Origin: Pirellulales bacterium
Lineage (GTDB): Bacteria; Planctomycetota; Planctomycetia; Pirellulales; PALSA-1355
Direction of reading: 5' to 3'
Length of the DNA stretch: 64,000 nucleotides
NCBI GenBank assembly: GCA_963733035.1
Contig: CAVTBU010000005.1
Coordinates: 1 to 64,000 of the forward strand
Below the pieces are notes generated by a model. That model was given only the letters and a program-made list of their open reading frames with translations, did no database searches and was not told the origin of the DNA. The stretch's first letter is position 1, and every line of letters begins with the position of its first letter. Position numbers and translations under genes: made by a program. This document shows, piece after piece, positions 30,767-56,980 of the stretch.

Positions 30767-32154
30767 TTCCAGAAGCAATGCCTTTCACCAGTGTTGACAG
30801 CGGTATGCCGAGCGCCGATACGCTCAATCGCGTTGTGAAAATCGCGATTGACAGTGGCGAAGTCACAACCGTTGCCGCCGGGTATGACCTGCTCCGCACG
30901 TATCGTGTTGGCGTTCGTGTTGGCCCAGAGGTTCAGAATTCTACTGCTCATCAGGCTGCCTTGCTGACGATCGTCAATATCGCGCGCCGTGCCCTACTTG
31001 GTGGCGTCTACATCGAAGGGAGTCTCGACACTCCGCTGCTGGTTCCGGTTCCTGGCCAACAAACACTTGCTGGAGCCGTGGCCGCCCTCGGCGGGCAGGC
31101 GATTAACGAAATTGCAGGGACTATGCCCACGCTGATTCTGGGCAATGTGACTAGCAATTCGAACGAGCACGAGGTTGGCCTGAATGTCATCTTCAGCGAT
31201 TGGCGCGGAGGCGTTGTGCCACAAGCCGATTCACACTCGCCATCCGCACAGCAGGCAATCACACCAGCAGCAGTTCTTGCTGCGGCGATTGCCGTCTCCG
31301 AGGTCTTTCAAAACTTGCGTGGCAACCCAATGGCCGGTCGGCGGCCGGTCGGCCTTTCGCTCTGGATCCCGGAGTCGATTGATTGGGAAAATGCCCCTGC
31401 CGGTCCGCTCGACATCGTATTCCCGTCGAACCTTTGGCTGATTGGGCTCGGCCATCTTGGGCAAGCCTATCTGTGGGTGCTCGGCTTGTTACCCTATGCA
31501 GACCCTTCGAAGGTGATGCTCTATTTGCAGGATTTCGATCGGCTTGCCGCGTCCAACGACAGCACCTCATTGCTCACCAGCGGCGAGCTTGTTGGTCGCC
31601 TCAAAACCAGGGCGATGGCGGAGTGGGCAGAAGCACGAGGTTTCAACGCAAGAGTCATCGAGCGCCCATTCCCCGGCGGAATGAAGGTGACCGAGAAGGA
31701 ACCTCGATTGGCACTTGGAGGTGTCGATAATCCGCAAGCACGGGCCGCATATGAAGATGCAGAATTTGACTGGATTGTTGAATCCGGATTGGGGGCAGGT
31801 CCGACGGAATACCTTGCCCTGCGCCTTCACACATTCCCTGCAACTACCACGGCACGCCGGAAATGGAGTGATGTTGATGTACATCGTGCCCCAGGGCCGA
31901 ATGTAGCTGCTTACCAGGATTTGTCGGCCAAGGGCATGGATGACTGCGGATTGGTTCAACTCGCCACGCGGTCTGTGGGGGCACCGTTTGTCGGCACGGT
32001 GGCCGCGTCGCTTGTCATCGCTGAAGTCCTGCGTTTTCTAAATGGAGGTCCTAGGACAGAGGTGATCGACATGACTCTTCGCGACCCAGGCAGTCGGTCA
32101 GTGGTGTCGGCAACGACTCAGTTAAATGGCTTCAATCCAGGTTTCACCTACTAA
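30763..32154 (+). CDS. bilD: E1-like activating enzyme (BilD-like)
   Basis: IGLGHLG nucleotide loop, QDFD, GGVDNPQAR, candidate catalytic DDCGLV, VGAPFVG; long N-terminal inactive-adenylation-like region; ATGA overlap with JAB. Confidence 0.85.
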   Translation: MIPEAMPFTSVDSGMPSADTLNRVVKIAIDSGEVTTVAAGYDLLRTYRVGVRVGPEVQNSTAHQAALLTIVNIARRALLGGVYIEGSLDTPLLVPVPGQQTLAGAVAALGGQAINEIAGTMPTLILGNVTSNSNEHEVGLNVIFSDWRGGVVPQADSHSPSAQQAITPAAVLAAAIAVSEVFQNLRGNPMAGRRPVGLSLWIPESIDWENAPAGPLDIVFPSNLWLIGLGHLGQAYLWVLGLLPYADPSKVMLYLQDFDRLAASNDSTSLLTSGELVGRLKTRAMAEWAEARGFNARVIERPFPGGMKVTEKEPRLALGGVDNPQARAAYEDAEFDWIVESGLGAGPTEYLALRLHTFPATTTARRKWSDVDVHRAPGPNVAAYQDLSAKGMDDCGLVQLATRSVGAPFVGTVAASLVIAEVLRFLNGGPRTEVIDMTLRDPGSRSVVSATTQLNGFNPGFTY

Positions 32155-32399
32155 CTTTCGACCCGAATGACCGGACGTTGCACTTCGGGCCGGGCTGCTC
32201 CGGGCTCCGCTTATGCTCGGTCCGACTGCCGCAAGCCACAGCCGGACTGCTTCGCACCCTGCAATCCTTAATGCGGCGGGCGATGCCGAGAATTGAAGGC
32301 TGGTTCGCGATTCTAATCCACCCCGCTCCGCGCTCGCTGCCATTTCGAGCCATTTGAGACGGCCTGTTTGCAGCGCATCCATGAGGAAGCCGCTGTCAA

Positions 32400-32575
32400 G
32401 TCGATAGCGAGAAGACCACGGGATCTCCAAGCATCCATCCGGCATCTCCGCTCTCGGGCGGACCGCCACCTTTCTATTTTCGGCCACTCCCATTCATTTG
32501 CGCGGCGTCGCAAAGTCGCCATGCGCTGCACCGGGATGCGGCATCGGATCCCGCTATCTCCTTGAGTGTTTCCCC
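32400..32575 (-). ncRNA. Putative bridge/seek RNA region of IS110 element 1 (limits approximate)
   Basis: Holds a 10-nt complement of the right target flank (32521-32530) and a match to the left flank (32494-32501) around a hairpin. Confidence 0.6.
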
Positions 32576-33598
32576 TCAAGCCACAGACACTTTTTCCTGC
32601 CACACCTGGCCCTGGCGGAGCATCGCATGCATCACGCGGGCCAGGTAGTGGGCCGTGGCCACCAACGCGATCTTCTTTCGGTCATCGGCGCCTTGATGAA
32701 TGCGCTCAAAGAAGTGGCGGATCGTCGGGAATCGCCGCACTCCTTGCCAAGCTGCCTCAGTCAACAGCTTTCGCACCGTCGCTGGTCCTTCGCGTGTAAT
32801 GTGCCCCAGCCGGTTCATCGAGCCCGATTGGTCCTGAGCAGGAACCAGACCAAAGTAACAGCCGATCGACTTGGTCGTGCGGAATCGGCTGGGGTCATCG
32901 AGATAAGCCGCCATCGCCTCCGCGGTGCGTGCGCCGACACCGGGGATCGTTACCAACAACGCGGAAGCTCCGCTCGCCTGCGAATGGCGTTCAAGCTGCT
33001 TCTCCACACGACGGAGCTGTTCGCTGAAGACGTGCAGCTCCTCTACCAGCAGGTCTCGGCGCATAGCATAGAGAGGGCTGGGCAGTTCGAGCCGTTCCAG
33101 CCAGTATAAGCCTTGCTTGGTCCACAGACCGAACTCCGAGGGGACCGCAATCCCCAGGCTGCGCAACAACCCTCTCAAAGAATTCTTTGCTCGTGTTCGT
33201 TTGTCGATGACCTGCGTCCGGTACTCGATCAGCTGACGCCAGGCTCGCACATCCCCTGACGGAACGTAGACGCCGGGAACCTCGTTCAAAAATAGTAGCT
33301 TCGCCAGCTTCTCGACGTCCACGCGATCGTTCTTGCGCTTGGAGCGGAAGATCAGTCGCAATTGCCCGGGATGGGGCACCACCACGCGCTGGCACACCGG
33401 TTTGAGCAACTCGTAAATGCGTCCGTAACCGCAGGAGGCCTCGTAGCATATGCTGACGGGACCATCCAACACTTTAAGTTGGTCGGCAATGCCCGACCAA
33501 GGACCTCGCACCCTCACCTGTTTGATCCTGCGACCGTTCTTGTCAAGTACACACATCGAAGTGTGCCCGAGGTGAACATCCAAACCGACGAAATACAT
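32576..33598 (-). CDS. IS110-family transposase/recombinase
   Basis: VGLDVH, YEAS, KNDRVD, IPGVG, GLVP..QSG, GHITREG. Confidence 0.95.
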   Translation of the reverse strand: MYFVGLDVHLGHTSMCVLDKNGRRIKQVRVRGPWSGIADQLKVLDGPVSICYEASCGYGRIYELLKPVCQRVVVPHPGQLRLIFRSKRKNDRVDVEKLAKLLFLNEVPGVYVPSGDVRAWRQLIEYRTQVIDKRTRAKNSLRGLLRSLGIAVPSEFGLWTKQGLYWLERLELPSPLYAMRRDLLVEELHVFSEQLRRVEKQLERHSQASGASALLVTIPGVGARTAEAMAAYLDDPSRFRTTKSIGCYFGLVPAQDQSGSMNRLGHITREGPATVRKLLTEAAWQGVRRFPTIRHFFERIHQGADDRKKIALVATAHYLARVMHAMLRQGQVWQEKVSVA

Positions 33599-33743
33599 CG
33601 TGAAGCCTCCTTCGTACGAGGAACGACACGGACCAAGTAGCCATCGTACCGCTCAGGCTTCCTACATAGAGTCATTTGCAGCGCGGCACATATCGCAATC
33701 GGCGTAACCGCAAGCGGCGCAATCGCTTGACAAAAAATCAGGT

Positions 33744-33765
33744 GCAGGTTCAAATCCTGTCGCCC
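33744..33765 (+). other. tRNA 3'-end remnant (T-arm), probable att core
   Basis: GCAGGTTCAAATCCTGTCGCCC, 17 bp from the integrase stop; no rest of a tRNA upstream. Confidence 0.65.
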
Positions 33766-33782
33766 TTCTTCACCTCCCACTC

Positions 33783-34628
33783 TCAATACCCCACCCTCTC
33801 AACCCCTTCCGCCAACTGATCTCCACTCCGTTGCGAATACCGGCTTGTGGTCTGCAGATTCTCGTGCCCCAAGATCTGAGCAAGGGACACGAGATCGTTC
33901 CCATTGTCTGCCAAGAACTGTTTGGCAAACGTGTGTCTGAACAAGTGCGGGTGAAGGCGAACGCCGATCAAAGTCGAGTATTTTTGGCAGAGTGCCCTTA
34001 CGCCATCGTCAGTGATAGGACCTCGCTCGCCAATAAAGACTTTGCTAGAAACCGGAGGGCGAGTCTCCAAGTATTCCTGCAGCGCCCGACGAGCCGGCAA
34101 GGGTAACGGCACAGTCCGCTGCTTGCCGCCCTTGCCATGCCGAAAAACTACTGACCCTGCTCGCTCTCCGATCATCAAGTCTCTCAGTTCAAGATTCACA
34201 AGATCAGACACCCGGCAACCCGTGTAGAGTAGCAATGCAAAGATTGCTCCCGCCCGAACGTCCTGCCGCAGTTCGATCTCGCGCAGCAACCGCCGAACGT
34301 CTGCACGTTCAAGTCCTTTGGGAGCCAATTGCTGCCGCCGCAGTTCCTTCACACCTTTGGCTGGATTGGCTTCCAATCGCCCTTCAACCACCAACCACTC
34401 GAAGAACCTTCGGATCATCACCAGCGCACGATTGATGCTGGCGATCGCCTGCTTTTGTTCCCGGTGCAGATGATTTCGAAAATCCACGACGTCTCGTAGC
34501 GTCGTTCGTTTCACCGTGAAAGGTTCTTGGTTCGCCTCGACGAACCAACTGGCGAACTTCCGGAGGTCGTTGCGAATGGCGCGGCAGGTATGCTCGGAGA
34601 AGTCATGGGCGTCCAGGTAAGCCGCCAC
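33783..34628 (-). CDS. XerC/D-like tyrosine integrase (true start probably near 34715 across a frameshift)
   Basis: YTGCRVSD, GKGGKQRTVP, HPHLFRHT, LGHENLQTTSRY; all catalytic residues present. Confidence 0.93.
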   Translation of the reverse strand: MAAYLDAHDFSEHTCRAIRNDLRKFASWFVEANQEPFTVKRTTLRDVVDFRNHLHREQKQAIASINRALVMIRRFFEWLVVEGRLEANPAKGVKELRRQQLAPKGLERADVRRLLREIELRQDVRAGAIFALLLYTGCRVSDLVNLELRDLMIGERAGSVVFRHGKGGKQRTVPLPLPARRALQEYLETRPPVSSKVFIGERGPITDDGVRALCQKYSTLIGVRLHPHLFRHTFAKQFLADNGNDLVSLAQILGHENLQTTSRYSQRSGDQLAEGVERVGY

Positions 34629-51037: not shown

Positions 51038-51336
51038 TCGCCCGTCGCTCTCAACAATCCGTCCGCATTGTCGGGCGGCAAGAGTTGTTGCGTAGACCCG
51101 ATATTGGGTTGGTCATCATCTGGCGTGTACGCCGTCCCGTCGCCGTATAATCCGTGCAAATACGGTGCGACCAGCGATGGATGCTAAACGCAAGGCGTTT
51201 AGCGTCCATCGCTTCCACGGAAATCGAAGTCGGATTCAAAATCCAGTGCCCGCAAGGGCGTGGCAGGGCAAATTGGCTTTGCTCACGTAGTCTACTCCCT
51301 TCTAAATGGACTCAGATACGACGTATTTCAGAACGG

Positions 51337-51855
51337 TCAGTAACTCAATCTCTCCACGCCTTCAGCTAACTGCTCGCCGCCTCGCTGCGAGTAGCGGCTT
51401 GTGGTTTGTAGATTGTGGTGACCGAGAATCTGAGCCAGACTCACCAAGTCATTTGCGTTGTCCGCAAGGAATTGCTTCGCCATCGTGTGTCGAAAGACGT
51501 GCGGGTGCAGGCGCACGCCAATCAGCGCCGAATACTTTCGACTTAACGCACGCACACCGTCGTCCGTCAATGGTCCCCTCTCGCCAACAAAGACTGTCAT
51601 CGACTCGACCGCTGGCCGAGAATCCAAATAAATCTGCATTGCCCGACGAGCCGGCAGCGGAAGTGGCACCGCTCGCTGCTTGTTTCCCTTTCCGTGGCGA
51701 AATACCACCGAACCATTTCGTTCTCCAATCTGAATGTCGGACAGCTCCAGATTCACAATGTCGCTGACCCGACAGCCCGTGTAGAGCATCAAACTAAAGA
51801 TCGCCCCGGCTCGAATGTCGTGCCGCAATTCAATCTCTCGCAACAATCGCCGACG
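51337..51855 (-). pseudogene. Catalytic-domain fragment of a tyrosine integrase paralogous to 33783-34628
   Basis: RRLLREIELR...YTGCRVSD...HPHVFRHT...LGHHNLQTTSRY; N-terminal half absent. Confidence 0.88.
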
Positions 51856-53519
51856 CTCGAACGCGGTGAACCAGCGACAGTTGACGATTGGCTCAGTAGC
51901 ACGGCAATCGCATCTTAATTTGCGGCGAAACCCAGGAGAATTCGTTCGAGGGTGTTGATATTGAGGCAGGCGCGGTAGCGTTTGCCGCGGATGTTGTCTT
52001 TGATGGAAGTGTCCGCCGAGAGGATGGACACTGCCAGGCGTCGCAACATGGCCGAGGTCTGGGGTGCGTGCTGCTTGCGGATGCGGCTGGCGTCTTCTGA
52101 AAAAGTTACATCGAGCACCCAGTGCAACTGGCTTTCGATGCTCCAGTGCTGGCGGATGAATTTGGCCAGCGTCTTCACCTTGGGCGGCAGGCTGCTGAGG
52201 AAGTAGCTGTGACCAGCGTTGATTTTCTGTACCACCGGTTATGAAGGTAGGGGTTGGGATAAAGGTTCTTCGTCTTGGGTTCGCGTGTGCTGCTGGAGCG
52301 CAGGCGCAGCCGGAGCGGAAGCAGCACACGGGCGGCGAACTCCGAGGGGGTCCGGTAGCCCAGCGAACTGTGCGGCCGGTGATGGTTGTAATCCTCTCGC
52401 CAAGCGGCCGTTAGCGTGCGGGCTGCCGCCAGGTTCTCGAATACCTCCACGGTCAGGAACTCGTCCCGCAGCCGGCTGTGGAAGCTCTCGGCGTAGCCGT
52501 TCTCCCAGGGGCTGCCCGGCTCAATGTACAACGCTTCGACGTCCACCTGGTCCAGCCAGCGCCGGATCGTCGCGGCAACGAACTCGGGACCGTTGTCGCT
52601 ACGGATGTGCTTGCGGCACGCCCCGCATCGCAAACAGCTCGGCCAGCGTGTCGATCACGTCCTCGCTGGTGATGCTGCGATCCACCTTCAACGCCAGGCA
52701 CTCCCGCGTGTGCTCGTCCACGATCGAGAGCCACTTCAGCTGGCTGCCACTGGCCGTGCGATCGAAGACGAAGTCCCAGCACCAGACGTGGTCCTTGTGA
52801 TCGCTCGCCGCCTGTGACAAGCGTTCGCGCTCGTGCCCAATCGCCGCTTTTTCGCTTCTTTTGCGGCACTTTCAGACCCTCCCGACGCCACAGCCGATAC
52901 ACCGCGTGTCGCTGGCGCTGCCATCCTTCGTGACGCAATAGCTTGCGGTGATCCGCCGATAGCCGAAACGCGGATGCTCCCGCGCCAACTCCAGCATCCG
53001 CCTCACCAGCGCCGGTTCGTCGTCGCGTGGCTTGGCTGGTAACGTTGACTCGCCCGCGGTTGGTCCAACACCCGGCACGCCCTTCGCTCGGAGACTGCGA
53101 ACTCCTTGCGAAGCTCACCGACCGCCGCACGCTTCCGCGAAGGGCTTACCAGTTTCCCTCCGCGACGTGCTTCAGCATCTGGATGTCGAGAGCCTGGTCG
53201 GCCACGATCTGCTTCAGCCGGCGGTTCTCGTCTTCCAGCTCCTTCAGCCGCTTCGCCTCCTCGGCCTTCATCCCGCCGTACTGGTTCCGCCAGCGGTCGA
53301 ACGTCGACTGGCTGACCTCCAAGGCCTGCAGCACGGCCGCCAGGTCCTTGCCGGCGTTGAGCATCGCGTCCGCATCCCGCAGCTTCCGCACGATCTGCTC
53401 CGGGTTGTGTCGCTTCCGTCGCTTCGTCGTCATCGAAGGTCTCCTTGCCCTCCAGGGGCTCAAGACCTTCATAACACGTGGATCAGGATTTCAACAGCAC
53501 CCATAACCACAGTGTCAAG

Positions 53520-53821
53520 GGCTCTGTCTCTCTGTCTTGTTTTGATCATTTCGGAACAGAGAAAGGCTAGACGGGGGTGCAGGGGGTGGCAATGAACGCC
53601 CCTGCTCGACGACACGATGTCGTCGAAACTTCTCGCGTGCACCCCAGCTTTGTCGGCGCGAGGCGTAAGCACCCATTCGTGCCGTCCGGCACAAGGCCGT
53701 CGCACAGGAGACGATTCACATGGCAAGTCGCCCAATCAGGTCAACAGTGGAGGTCAAAGCTCACTAGCTATTGAAACGGGCCGATCCTGCCATTCGCATG
53801 CGCCCGCCATGAACCGATGCT
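53520..53821 (-). ncRNA. Putative bridge/seek RNA region of IS110 element 2 (limits approximate)
   Basis: Target-matching segments at 53735-53743 and 53767-53776 flanking a hairpin. Confidence 0.6.
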
Positions 53822-54814
53822 CTAGTTCGTTTCTTGCTGCCAACGTCGCAGCCGCTTCCAGCAGATTTCTGCCAATTTCCGAGCCACTGCAACTCTTGCG
53901 ATCTTGGCACTCGATCTCTTGCGGATTCGCTGATAAAAGTTCTTCAAACCTGGATCCTCTGTGACAACCTTGATGGCGGCTTCCACGAGAATCCACCGTA
54001 GCCAGGGAGAGCCGTCTCGCGATATTCGTCCGTGACGACAGACGGTGCCCGACTGCCGTACACGGGTTGCAAGGCCGGCATACGCTCCTACCTGCTTGGC
54101 AGTCCGGAATCGCTCCACGTCGCCGAGTTCCGCGATGATAACCAGCGCAGAGTAAAGCCCGATTCCCCGGATGTCGAGCAATGCTTCGGTCTGCGGGAAC
54201 TGGGCCGCCAACAGCTCAAGTTTCAGGTCGACTCGTGCGATTCGCCTTTGAAACGACTCCAGACGTTCCAATAGATCATCCCGCAGCTCGTTCTCGATTG
54301 GACCGAAGTCCTGCCGACGAAACCAGTGGAGTCCTCGGGGGCCAAATGGGACACGAAAGGGAGCCTCATAATTGCGGCGGGCAAGGATAGCACGCAAGCC
54401 GATCTTGACGCCTCCGGCTCCGCGGCCCAGCCGTATTCGATAGCGTGTCAATTCCCGGAGTTGCTGATAGGCTGGCGAAGGAACATACGAAAGAGGGATT
54501 TGGTTGATGCGAAGCAAATTGGCCAAGAGTTGACTGTCCAGCTTGTCCGTCTTCGACCGACGCTGCACCATCGCTCGCAATCGTAGCGGGTGGGCAACCA
54601 GCACCGTCCCAAGAGGATTCAGTCGCTCATACAACCAGCGGTAGCTTGCGCTCGCTTCGATAACTGCCCGAAATGGCTGCAACCGATGGAAAACTTGCAG
54701 CATCGTGGACTCGTCCTGAGTCGAAATCCGAACAGGCGCCATCGCCTGCCCCGAATCGTGAACCGCGGCCACCACCAGGTCGCGACGATGCAAATCAATG
54801 CCGACGTGCCACAT
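53822..54814 (-). CDS. IS110-family transposase/recombinase
   Basis: VGIDLH, IEAS, KTDKLD, IRGIG, YAGL..RQSG, GRISRDG. Confidence 0.95.
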   Translation of the reverse strand: MWHVGIDLHRRDLVVAAVHDSGQAMAPVRISTQDESTMLQVFHRLQPFRAVIEASASYRWLYERLNPLGTVLVAHPLRLRAMVQRRSKTDKLDSQLLANLLRINQIPLSYVPSPAYQQLRELTRYRIRLGRGAGGVKIGLRAILARRNYEAPFRVPFGPRGLHWFRRQDFGPIENELRDDLLERLESFQRRIARVDLKLELLAAQFPQTEALLDIRGIGLYSALVIIAELGDVERFRTAKQVGAYAGLATRVRQSGTVCRHGRISRDGSPWLRWILVEAAIKVVTEDPGLKNFYQRIRKRSSAKIARVAVARKLAEICWKRLRRWQQETN

Positions 54815-56359
54815 AACTTGGGCTCCTTGTTTAGCGGCCTAGGAATCACCTTGCGGCTTATCCTACCCGCAGGCCACGAGCCCTCGTTCAGTGGTTATCG
54901 TATCAGGTCAGCTGACCTCGCCCGTTTCCCGCCCAGCGATCCGGGTGATCCGCAGCACCATGACGAGCGTGGCCAAGCCTTTCCAGTCGGCAACGCCGGG
55001 CAGCGACCGAGGAGCGGGCAGCACCGTGTATTCGCGGCGTTCTTGACGGCCGCGGTTGGTTTCCGTCGTCACGTGCCGACACATGCCGGGTGGCCGAACG
55101 CGGGCTTCCAGGGCCGTGGTAAACGCCGCATCCACCGCTTGGTGCAACTTTTCCTGATTGCCCTTGAGCGCCAGCACGTAGTCGCCGCCGCCGGCGACGA
55201 TCTTGGTGGCGATTTCTTTCTGACAGCCCATGGCATCGATGGTGACCGTCGCGCCTTTCAGATCGAGCAGTTCCAACAGCAGCGGAATCGCCGTGATTTC
55301 GTTGGATTTCGAGTCGACGGCAACCTGCCCTAGCGTCAGGCGTGTCTCGCTGGCCCAGGCACTCACCAGGTGCAAGGGATTGCGGCCGGCCGCTTTGTCT
55401 CCGGAGCCGCGCAAGGTTTTGCCGTCGATGGCAATATGCTTGCCGATTTCGCGGCCCAGATCGTCGAGCCACTGCTGAATGCCAGCGACCAACTCGGCAG
55501 GATCGAGCATCGCGAACACGCGGCCAAACGTGTCGTGCGAGGGGATGCCGCCTTCGAGTCGCAGAAACGTTCGCAGCCAGACCAGCCGATCGTTGCCAAA
55601 CCGCTCGATGTCAGCCCAGGTATCGGCCCCCGCAATCGTGCCGCACAGCGCCACAACGACCAACTCGAACAGGTCGTGCACACGCGTCCGCTCGATCCGC
55701 GGATCGGTCAGATCTTCAAACGGAGTAAAAACTGCCACGAGTCGCTGCGACATGAAAAAACCCTCCGTGAGTGACGTTCCTCCGAAGGAATCCTTCAAGG
55801 GCCCTTGACTCTTTCAAGCCGCTACCAATAGTGCAACAGAATTAGATGCGATTGCCGTGGCTCAGTAGCAAATTCCGTTGGGCATTGAGTGCCGTAGTAA
55901 TGTTGCAGTAATTGGTGATCACTCGCAGTCTATCGAACTTTGACACATGACCACGATGCGGACTTTGCGGCGGTTGCGGACGCTTGTGGGCTCGCTTGCC
56001 AATGGATGCCTGCCGCTACGCTTGGAACTGCCACCCGCTGAAGTAGACGGATTACGATTTTGTAAGGAATCGGATAGTCTCTTGAGAGGGTAATCCTTTC
56101 GTGTTAGCGTCGGCACGGCGCCCGACAATCGGCCATTGACTGCCGCGAAAGAAGAGACCGATGGAAAGCTCTAGAAACACCCAGGTTCCAAACGGGTTGG
56201 CTGGCTTCTGTCGTGCGGCGGCATTCCGTGGCACCCCGAAGGGACCGGGTATGCGCTGCGGGCCCGCCACGACGGGATGATTTTTCTGCCGAGGGGTTGA
56301 AACATTTCCCGTCCGGTCTTCTTCCGCTTCGTTCCTATCTAGATGGGGGCTCCGTGACA

Positions 56360-56980
56360 ATGAACGAGGCGTTTCCGCCACGCCCGCGGGAGAATTCCTC
56401 GGACACCCCGGGCGCCGTGGATCAATGGCTTCGAGAAGCTCGCGACGGTTCGCGCACGGCTTTGGGCCGGATTATGGAGGCTAGGCGCAACCACTTGCTA
56501 CTGGTCGCCAACCGTTCCTTGGGTCAAAACCTAAGGTCCAAGATCGGCGCATCGGACCTCGTACAAGATACGTATGTCGAGGCGCAACGCAATTTCGGCC
56601 ATTTCCGCGGAAGTACTGAACAGGAGTTTCATGCTTGGCTTTTGGGCATTTTGGCCAATCGGCTGGCTAATGCCGTGCGCTTCTACCGGCAGACGCAAAA
56701 ACGCGCCGTCGACCGCGAGTTGTCCGTGGCGGCGGTCGATGCGGCACTGAGCATACTGCACGACGGAGCTGCCACACCCGGCACTAGGATGCTGGTCGAC
56801 GACGAGCAACGGCGCGTACGGCTGGCACTGCAATACGTACAGGAACCGTGGCGGTCGGTACTGGTCGAACGGATCTGGCAGGGAGCCACGTTTGCCGAGA
56901 TCGGCGTGCGAAGAAATCGTTCCGCCGAGGCGGCCCGTAAGCTTTGGGTTCGGGGCGTGCGGAAATGCGAGAAGCACTAG
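56360..56980 (+). CDS. ECF sigma factor, planctomycete type (C-terminus probably frameshifted)
   Basis: LRSKIGASDLVQDT, FRGSTEQEFHAWLLGILAN, TFAEIG..RSAEAARKLWVRG. Confidence 0.88.
   Translation: MNEAFPPRPRENSSDTPGAVDQWLREARDGSRTALGRIMEARRNHLLLVANRSLGQNLRSKIGASDLVQDTYVEAQRNFGHFRGSTEQEFHAWLLGILANRLANAVRFYRQTQKRAVDRELSVAAVDAALSILHDGAATPGTRMLVDDEQRRVRLALQYVQEPWRSVLVERIWQGATFAEIGVRRNRSAEAARKLWVRGVRKCEKH

Follow-up and report, generated by a model that had tools for sequence, protein, structure and literature searches.

On the first 64,000 nucleotides (nt) of contig CAVTBU010000005.1 of a Pirellulales bacterium (assembly GCA_963733035.1), the stretch analysed here and called the window throughout, a complete IS1111-family insertion sequence interrupts the left end of an IS3-family element, which in turn interrupts an ISAs1-family transposase gene. 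The IS1111-type element very probably carries a two-loop guide RNA programmed for the same IS3 left end in which it is inserted, and we find the insertion at the exact predicted place, register and orientation. Four things read from the sequence carry this view: the anatomy of the element, a conserved structured RNA, the match between its guides and the flanks, and the covariation of guides with flanks across the family. Coordinates are collected in Table 1, and papers are cited by PMC number for the parts of each that were covered.

The ends of the element were set by comparison with 60-plus relatives and with an uninterrupted IS3 end found at C10 in the same genome. Read on the transposase strand, the element begins TGATACG-ATAACCAC... 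and finishes ...GTGGTTAT-GGG, and its non-coding DNA amounts to 91 nt before the transposase gene and 322 nt after it. The transposase contains the domains PF01548 (E 3e-15) and PF02371 (E 6e-25), scores 209 bits against NCBIfam NF033542, 'IS110 family RNA-guided transposase' (cutoff 140), and is homologous to the solved recombinases ISCro4 (PDB 9t56, E 4e-14) and IS621 (PDB 8wt6, E 1.4e-10). Its C-terminal motif, GLATRVRQSG, keeps GL and SG, S255 and G256 being invariant in 5/5 aligned relatives. The published hallmarks of IS1111 are 7-bp left and 3-bp right extensions, subterminal repeats, a long downstream non-coding region and a transposase of 330-350 aa (PMC11187229). The subterminal repeat of the window element is perfect over 8 nt and matches at 9/10 positions when extended, against about 12 nt in relatives; such repeats are 'usually 11-13 bp' according to PMC11187229, longer than here, and range over 7-17 bp according to PMC11208160, which takes in the 8 nt. 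TG stands on both sides of the element, and from this single insertion, seen in one orientation, one copy is assignable to the element itself. By its DEDD domains, subterminal repeats, 7- and 3-nt extensions and long downstream non-coding region, 53500-54905 is, as an original prediction made from the letters of the window had proposed, a member of the IS1111 family, which falls within IS110 sensu ISfinder.

On the minus strand the left junction reads TGACC-TG followed by the element, and the element's end ...GGTTATGGG is followed by TG-CTGTTGAAATCCTGATCCAC, the whole order being TGACC-TG, the element, then TG-CTGTTGAAATCC.... Excision of 53500-54905 in silico leaves a single TG and restores TGACCTGCTGTTGAAATCC..., the IS3 left inverted repeat that the original prediction saw restored on removal of the element. 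Its counterpart stands uninterrupted at C10 (around position 167045), where the homologous IS3 left end TGACCTGCTGTTGAAAAACTGATCC belongs to a 343-nt fragment 82.8% identical to the host copy. The element is inserted after base 7 of the IS3 left terminal repeat, with the 2-nt TG core on both sides. The 16-mer target has one further exact copy in the 6.6-Mb assembly, which is this C10 end; the IS3 right repeat TGACCAGCGTTGATTT departs from the target at the core and beyond.

Alignment of the downstream non-coding regions (45 distinct regions among the 61 relatives with both ends) places the start of a common RNA unit 16 nt past the transposase stop codon. Besides an outer stem, the predicted RNA comprises two loop domains, one for target binding (about 53722-53791) and one for donor binding (about 53664-53716), each an internal loop closed by a stem and bearing a hairpin. 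RNAalifold applied to 22 representatives predicted 29 pairs, 17 of them with compensatory changes, and this structure with an added outer stem was made into the covariance model R1 (156 positions, 33 pairs), a step that the original prediction had suggested. R1 locates the RNA behind the transposase gene, at the expected place, in nearly all relatives (83 matches from 99 sources and 79 matches from 76 sources, counts that take in several copies per locus and five weak matches to distant IS110 elements). In the alignment A4, which was fitted to the model and therefore leans towards the structure, 94.2% of cells are paired, against 82.2% in shuffled alignments and 27-48% with partners slid, and 25 of the 33 pairs are changed on both sides, against 12.6 in shuffles. 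The sequence and its covarying stems thereby place the RNA with the bridge RNA or long seekRNA type, in the downstream non-coding region where such an RNA had been foreseen. Behind the RNA gene, the last ~150 nt of the non-coding region (53500-53652, minus strand) hold a second module conserved in many relatives: first a short hairpin, at 53606-53626 in the window element, and then one of the form CAGGG..CATTGCC..CCCTG. This module may serve as a terminator, for processing or for the binding of a protein.

The guides can be placed on this RNA to the nucleotide. In the plus strand, the 5' target guide (53767-53776) reads GCTATTGAAA, against G+CTGTTGAAA in the target, with one U opposite a G, and the segment 53735-53743 of the 3' target guide is the reverse complement of TGACCTGAT. 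Both strings, with the hairpin between them, are those named beforehand as left-flank and core identity and as right-flank complement with one G-U pair, and they hold up. The complement of the top strand lies 5' of the complement of the bottom strand and the two overlap at the core, the same order and overlap as published for IS1111 seekRNAs (PMC11187229). In the 5' donor guide, compared by eye, position 7 of the left extension is a G peculiar to the window element and faces a C, where relatives have a T facing an A. The CU that follows AUGGGUG in the 3' donor guide is also the dinucleotide with which the right target flank begins. The RNA spells out both product junctions: UGACCUGAU, in the 3' target guide, is identical to the left product junction, and the 9-mer AUGGGUGCU, in the 3' donor guide, is identical to the right one at 53496-53504, these being its two occurrences. 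The match falls at fixed homologous positions of a conserved RNA and therefore involves no freedom of search.

Across the family the guides covary with the flanks of their own elements. They were taken by model columns from 160 distinct RNA matches, of which 49 were dropped (end or guide not located); the remaining 111 reduce to 104 unique sites and to 56 distinct guide pairs, with one representative each. The left guide agrees with its own left flank at a mean of 3.98 of 6 positions (1.82 when shuffled), the right guide with its right flank at 5.23 of 8 (3.51), and the 2-nt donor extension with the right flank at 1.64 of 2 (1.27). Of 5000 shuffles, 0 attain the observed mean in any of the three comparisons (n=56); this count is not a probability, since related elements are not independent. 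The comparison is conservative: the automatic register is one base off in two subgroups, which lowers their scores (L004 matches by eye). The window element itself scores 5/6 on the left, 7/8 on the right (8/8 with G:U) and 2/2 for the donor extension. Both of its guides matching, and guides and flanks covarying family-wide, the predicted programming for the IS3 left terminal repeat stands.

Relatives are numerous and distant. When 200 related genomes were searched with the protein, 22 had a match apart from the bacterium's own, the best 59-62% identical; when one genome per species was scanned with A1, an alignment of five relatives, 72 loci turned up at 43-71% identity, most of them in metagenome-assembled genomes (MAGs) of Planctomycetota; and a metagenome scan gave 240 relatives. 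Both ends were found in 61 of 76 loci, with a common architecture: left ends TGATACT (or T-GAGTACC) followed by ATAACCGC..., right ends ...GCGGTTAT-GGG, mostly then TG. The flanks form groups of differing sequence, and the targets are short intergenic repeats or promoter-like sequences. The RNA closest in its donor loop, L086, belongs to a truncated high-GC remnant in an Acidobacteriaceae MAG; its 3' target guide and whole donor loop are identical to those of the window RNA and its 5' target guide is entirely different. By sequence, the pair is a case of modular retargeting through the swap of one guide, and guide replacement has been described for ISEc11/ISXne4 (PMC11187229). The left guide UGACC-UG or a near variant occurs in five elements (L059, L166, L167, L179 and L086). 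An IS3 end as the common target of this group was considered and rejected, the flanks examined not being IS3: the flanks to the right of L179 and L059 code for a peptidase S41/tetratricopeptide repeat protein, a sigma factor and an IS630-like helix-turn-helix protein; the sole related site in the L059 genome lies between genes, resembles a promoter and shares TGACC-TG; and a search of plasmids with the L059 flank gave no match. No relative examined has an IS3 end as its target; of the 56 guide pairs, that of the window element alone specifies one. The original prediction had proposed that flanks of other copies be checked for IS3 inverted repeats; the window insertion has one, and the relatives' flanks examined do not.

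Three planctomycete MAGs carry many copies of such relatives (8 to over 25 loci), each in its own short repeated target. The sets are L036, L037, L040, L041, L062, L068, L092, L098 and L102; L044-L048, L051, L055 and L081; and L060-L100. Their targets, ...AAAGACTCC^CGACCCCTTTA, ...AATAAGCGCGCC^TGTCCCCCTTT and ...ATCC^TGTCTCGTTCCTGTCT, resemble dispersed intergenic repeats. A further subgroup (L003, L004, L005, L050, L057, L058, L096 and L053) has the left end T-G(A/C)GTACC and a palindrome-like site, with left flanks GCTAA... and right flanks TGAC(G/A)C...TTTAGC; the 5' guide of L003 fits its right flank poorly, and this copy may have gone off target or drifted.

By analogy with characterised members of the family, the element would leave as a circle whose joined ends create the promoter TTGACA-16-TACGAT, from which the recombinase and the downstream RNA would then be produced. 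The donor loop would bind the joined ends and the target loop would pair with both strands of the 16-17-nt site, upon which the recombinase would exchange strands at the TG core; the target loop appears to be programmed for TGACC-TG-CTGTTGAAA, which forms the outer end of the left terminal repeat in this IS3-family element. That the RNA is transcribed and processed and that the circle forms is presumed from that analogy, and we infer that the window insertion depended on the RNA and that the interrupted IS3 end has lost its function. In these families the joining of the ends in the circle is known to create a promoter (PMC11187229). The hexamers, spacing and extended TG are present as the original prediction described them, and TTGAC stands at the equivalent place, 16-19 nt from a TAC(T/C/G)AT-like hexamer of the left end, in 59/59 distinct end pairs of relatives. 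Sequencing runs gave small shares, at most 0.17 of words, and no RNA run of this bacterium was among them. Runs X1, X2, X3 and X11 showed neither joints nor a circle junction, and no RNA coverage of the RNA gene; the one RNA run compared contains pieces of 31 nt and 137 nt, both outside the RNA gene. Runs X1 and X2 contain short contigs of element parts, which give no independent support, as these runs may be the source sample. Apart from an 8-nt deletion at 53522, a 228-nt soil-metagenome contig of X1 is identical to 53512-53747; the non-coding region of the element therefore has a near-identical variant in that sample, which may be the source of the assembly.

How firmly can an RNA programmed for the IS3 end be read from this locus? 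Several observations weigh against it. The motif GLATRVRQSG has a T at the P position of the published consensus GL-P----S(t)G (PMC11187229), and the 5' donor guide carries one mismatch. The 112 bits of the window RNA lie at the low end of the family, most relatives scoring higher, up to 157. Folded as a single sequence, the RNA does not do better than shuffles (z -0.99 over 153 nt; z -1.36 over 328 nt), so that the support for the structure is that of the alignment, and a scan of 52000-56500 against Rfam 15 with E up to 1 gave no match. The CU dinucleotide of the 3' donor guide recurs in L086 and L168, where the flanks or guides would call for other bases; it is therefore not independent evidence for the window element and may reflect ancestry rather than target. 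The element has no further copy in its own 6.6-Mb genome, and no relative exceeds 70-71% protein identity among the 72 genome loci, nor 70% among the best 80 of the 240 metagenome relatives; with a single copy and no close relative, independent insertions of the window element are not there to be compared. Lastly, the perfect target at C10 is unoccupied.

The single copy and the empty C10 site also speak for an account in which an RNA guided the insertion, yet the element hit the IS3 end incidentally or as a dead end, recognising a 16-17-nt word that occurs in one local IS3 subgroup; it would have inserted once, be inactive or nearly so, and have no habit of attacking IS3 elements. This differs from programmed insertion into IS3 solely in its ecological claim, and we regard it as a serious possibility, somewhat short of an even chance. 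It gains from the three full IS3 copies of the genome (70.7% identity), whose ends TGGCC-TG-CTCCCC are unlike the guides, from the finding that 0/55 other guide pairs specify an IS3 end, relatives using intergenic repeats or promoter-like sites, and from a search that found no sigma-70-like promoter inside the integrated element. However, the element keeps its recombinase frame, its two ends and every RNA stem intact, and both exact occurrences of the target in 6.6 Mb are IS3 left ends, so that the programmed word is the IS3 end in this genome. The assembly, moreover, is 92% complete in 10 contigs, and assemblies often collapse or lose repeated elements. Mere coincidence, a loosely targeting IS110-family element having hit an IS3 end with two short non-coding matches arising by chance, is strongly disfavoured and in our estimate barely credible. 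Matches of 8-9 nt are common here, with 17 inverted pairs of that length in a 1451-nt stretch, among them a 9-nt match between guide region and outer flank (53773-53781 and 54920-54928) that we judged to be chance and rejected as a meaningful pairing. The guide matches, however, adjoin the core at both homologous guide positions of a conserved RNA, with order, strands and register all correct; over the 56 guide pairs these positions covary with the flanks; and on the window's right flank the other 55 guide pairs score at most 3/8. It is likewise very unlikely that the RNA acts also, or instead, on IS3 itself, for example as an antisense regulator of its leader or transposase mRNA. The sense strand at the IS3 left end, which would be part of the IS3 leader transcript, is indeed complementary to the 5' guide, but over 10 nt only; the same RNA architecture pairs with targets other than insertion sequences in relatives, and the known function of this class of RNA is DNA recombination (PMC11187229, PMC11208160).

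The interrupted element belongs by sequence to the IS3 family, as judged from the helix-turn-helix domain of orfA, the rve core of orfB, the ends, the duplication and the size. Members of that family have TG...CA ends, make a 3-4-bp duplication and measure 1.2-1.5 kb. Its orfB has rve_3/rve_2/rve domains and a weak NCBIfam match to IS3 transposase, and plasmid homologues of the host element are annotated 'IS3 family transposase'. An intact IS3 at C8, 70.7% identical to the host element, served as the reference that shows the host orfB scattered over three frames. About 45 nt past one intact copy, at C8:342496-342545, lies another IS3-like terminal repeat, TGACGTGCTGTTGAAG..., 2 of 16 positions off the guide-specified target, which points to an adjoining further element of that IS3 subgroup. 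In run X3, a contig spans 54910-55100 and its loose end equals the 30 nt of 52175-52204 (compared by eye), which is the ISAs1 site without the insertion; of the run contigs, this one alone was drawn on as evidence. Directly after the ISAs1 remnant, an open reading frame with a Phage_integrase (tyrosine recombinase) domain (E 7e-28) occupies 51337-52329 on the minus strand, and 51300-55800 as a whole is a pile-up of mobile-element genes of four kinds. Elsewhere in the window (32415-33598, minus strand) lies a second, distantly related IS110-family element. Its recombinase (32606-33598) is 33% identical to the first and scores 212 bits against NF033542; a weak R1 match follows the gene at 32415-32556 (29 bits, E about 1e-5). 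Just upstream of this second element, the T-arm-like string GCAGGTTCAAATCCTG (33735-33765, plus strand) resembles the 3' part of a tRNA and may be a tRNA fragment or an att-like remnant; ARAGORN found no tRNA in 32000-34200.

Table 1. The nested elements and the predicted guide RNA: features and their positions in the window.
Feature	Position	Strand	Remarks
Complete IS1111-family insertion sequence	53500..54905	minus	1406 bp; one TG copy counted with the left end
DEDD transposase/recombinase gene	53822..54814	minus	330 aa + stop; AAGGAG 8 nt upstream of ATG
Left terminal extension TGATACG, 7 nt	54899..54905	minus	first two bases are the TG core copy; relatives: TGATACT
Left subterminal inverted repeat ATAACCAC (transposase strand)	54891..54898	minus	8 nt, 100% complementary to 53503-53510
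Right subterminal inverted repeat GTGGTTAT (transposase strand)	53503..53510	minus	from repeat search
Right terminal extension GGG, 3 nt	53500-53502	minus	directly after the right subterminal repeat
Second TG core copy, right-junction side	53498..53499	minus	uninterrupted target has a single TG
Predicted bridge/seekRNA-like non-coding RNA gene, ~150 nt	53653..53805	minus	R1 112 bits, E 1.5e-28
Predicted 5' target guide UUUCAAUAGC	53767..53776	minus	complementary to target top strand (core G + CTGTTGAAA), one G:U
Predicted hairpin between target guides	53745..53766	minus	model helix 4: 7 pairs, 7/7 changed on both sides
Predicted 3' target guide U-UGACC-UG-AU	53735..53744	minus	left flank TGACC + TG core + the element's first two bases
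Predicted 5' donor guide AUCGUCUC	53707..53716	minus	complementary to left-end GATACGAT at 7/8 positions; from alignment, by eye
Predicted 3' donor guide AUGGGUG, then CU	53668..53676	minus	right end + core; AUGGGUG invariant in the family
-35-like TTGACA, right end	53513..53518	minus	16 nt from TACGAT (54897-54902) once circularised; TG before TACGAT
Host IS3-family element	52210..54910	minus	1295 bp without the nested element; ends TGACC.../...GGTCA
Split left inverted repeat of IS3	TGACC(TG) at 54904-54910; CTGTTGAAATCC... from 53497 downwards	minus	right inverted repeat begins at 52210
IS3 orfA, intact (HTH_Tnp_1, PF01527)	53146..53472	minus	61% identical to orfA of the intact C8 copy
IS3 orfB remnants, pseudogene	52175..53130	minus	all three frames, at least 4 frame changes (tblastn with intact C8 orfB)
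IS3 target site duplication GCTG, 4 bp	52206..52209; second copy 54911-54914		flanks the IS3
ISAs1-family transposase gene, N-terminal part	54908..55798	minus	PF13808, PF01609; NF033564 at 291 bits
ISAs1-family transposase gene, C-terminal part	51915-52235	minus	other side of the interrupting IS3

A question follows, does the element make a habit of IS3? The original prediction saw in it a naturally programmed recombinase that parasitises and immobilises IS3 elements. The first half, an RNA-programmed IS1111 element, is upheld; the second is plausible and goes no further, because there is one insertion, the cognate site at C10 is empty and the host IS3 is decayed. Since orfB of that host is multiply frameshifted, its lost mobility is not attributable to the IS1111 insertion. 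We put forward as a tentative idea, on balance doubtful, that the lineage was retargeted by the swap of one 10-nt guide to the left terminal repeat of a co-resident IS3 subgroup and would live as a transposon of transposons, severing the outermost 7 bp of the IS3 end and so disabling it, and that IS1111-type RNAs would encode both product junctions by 2-nt handshake extensions on both loops. Handshake guides have been described for IS621 (PMC11208158), and the junction 9-mers of the window RNA resemble them; in the parts of PMC11187229, PMC11208160 and PMC11208158 that were covered, we met no description of such extensions on both loops for the IS1111 group.

Insertion programmed by an RNA is of a kind already described, and the window element is a further natural example of it. 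The IS1111-type elements IS4321 and IS5075 reportedly use as their target the terminal inverted repeats that Tn21-family transposons carry. In Tn3/Tn21-family transposons these repeats are 38 bp long. IS4321/IS5075 and the window element are alike in being of IS1111 type and in using the terminal inverted repeat of another transposable element; the host of the former is a Tn3/Tn21-family transposon, whereas that of the latter is an IS3-family insertion sequence. About 900 insertions of IS4321 are known (PMC11187229), against a single one of the window element. The latter belongs to a planctomycete-centred subfamily and sits in an IS3 terminal repeat, unlike ISEc11, ISKpn4, ISPst6 and ISPa11, whose targets are repetitive extragenic palindromic (REP) sequences, attC or a short linear site; its predicted RNA unit (~150 nt), known from sequence alone, includes a donor loop, unlike the ISEc11-type seekRNA unit. 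Protein identity to these four elements we take to be at most about 35%. They share with the window element a 330-aa DEDD transposase, subterminal repeats, 7- and 3-bp extensions, a long downstream non-coding region, the order and overlap of the guides, a circle-junction promoter and natural retargeting (PMC11187229), and bridge-type RNAs are predicted in 93% of IS1111 entries (PMC11208160). ISEc21, of IS110 type, is likewise an RNA-guided DEDD recombinase with its natural target within IS3-family elements, but that target is a conserved coding stretch of their transposase genes rather than a terminal repeat, and its guide RNA lies upstream of tnp with the guide order reversed (PMC11187229). 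In IS621 and ISCro4 as in the window element, a two-loop RNA reads both strands around a 2-nt core (PMC11208160, PMC11208158), with handshake-like 2-nt extensions matching the partner DNA (PMC11208158) and a homologous recombinase. The window RNA lies in the right end, whereas theirs lies in the left end with the guide order reversed; the core is TG in the one and CT in the others, and the window element has long subterminal repeats. A literature search, outside which fell the supplementary target tables of PMC11187229 and PMC11208160, found no element of IS1111 type that targets the terminal repeat of an IS3-family element.

These findings leave unchanged the present view of the way in which IS1111-type elements work. 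What they add is that the guide code of IS1111-type RNAs is readable straight from genome sequence: the positions of both target guides, both donor guides and the two-base extensions can be fixed to the nucleotide and compared with about 100 sites where relatives have inserted naturally. The IS3-family terminal repeat joins REP sequences, attC, Tn21 ends and IS3 transposase genes as a class of natural target, and the window element and L086 make a natural pair differing by one swapped guide. The planctomycete-centred subfamily to which the element belongs offers many guide/target pairs, which could train or test the guide rules of IS1111-type recombinases.

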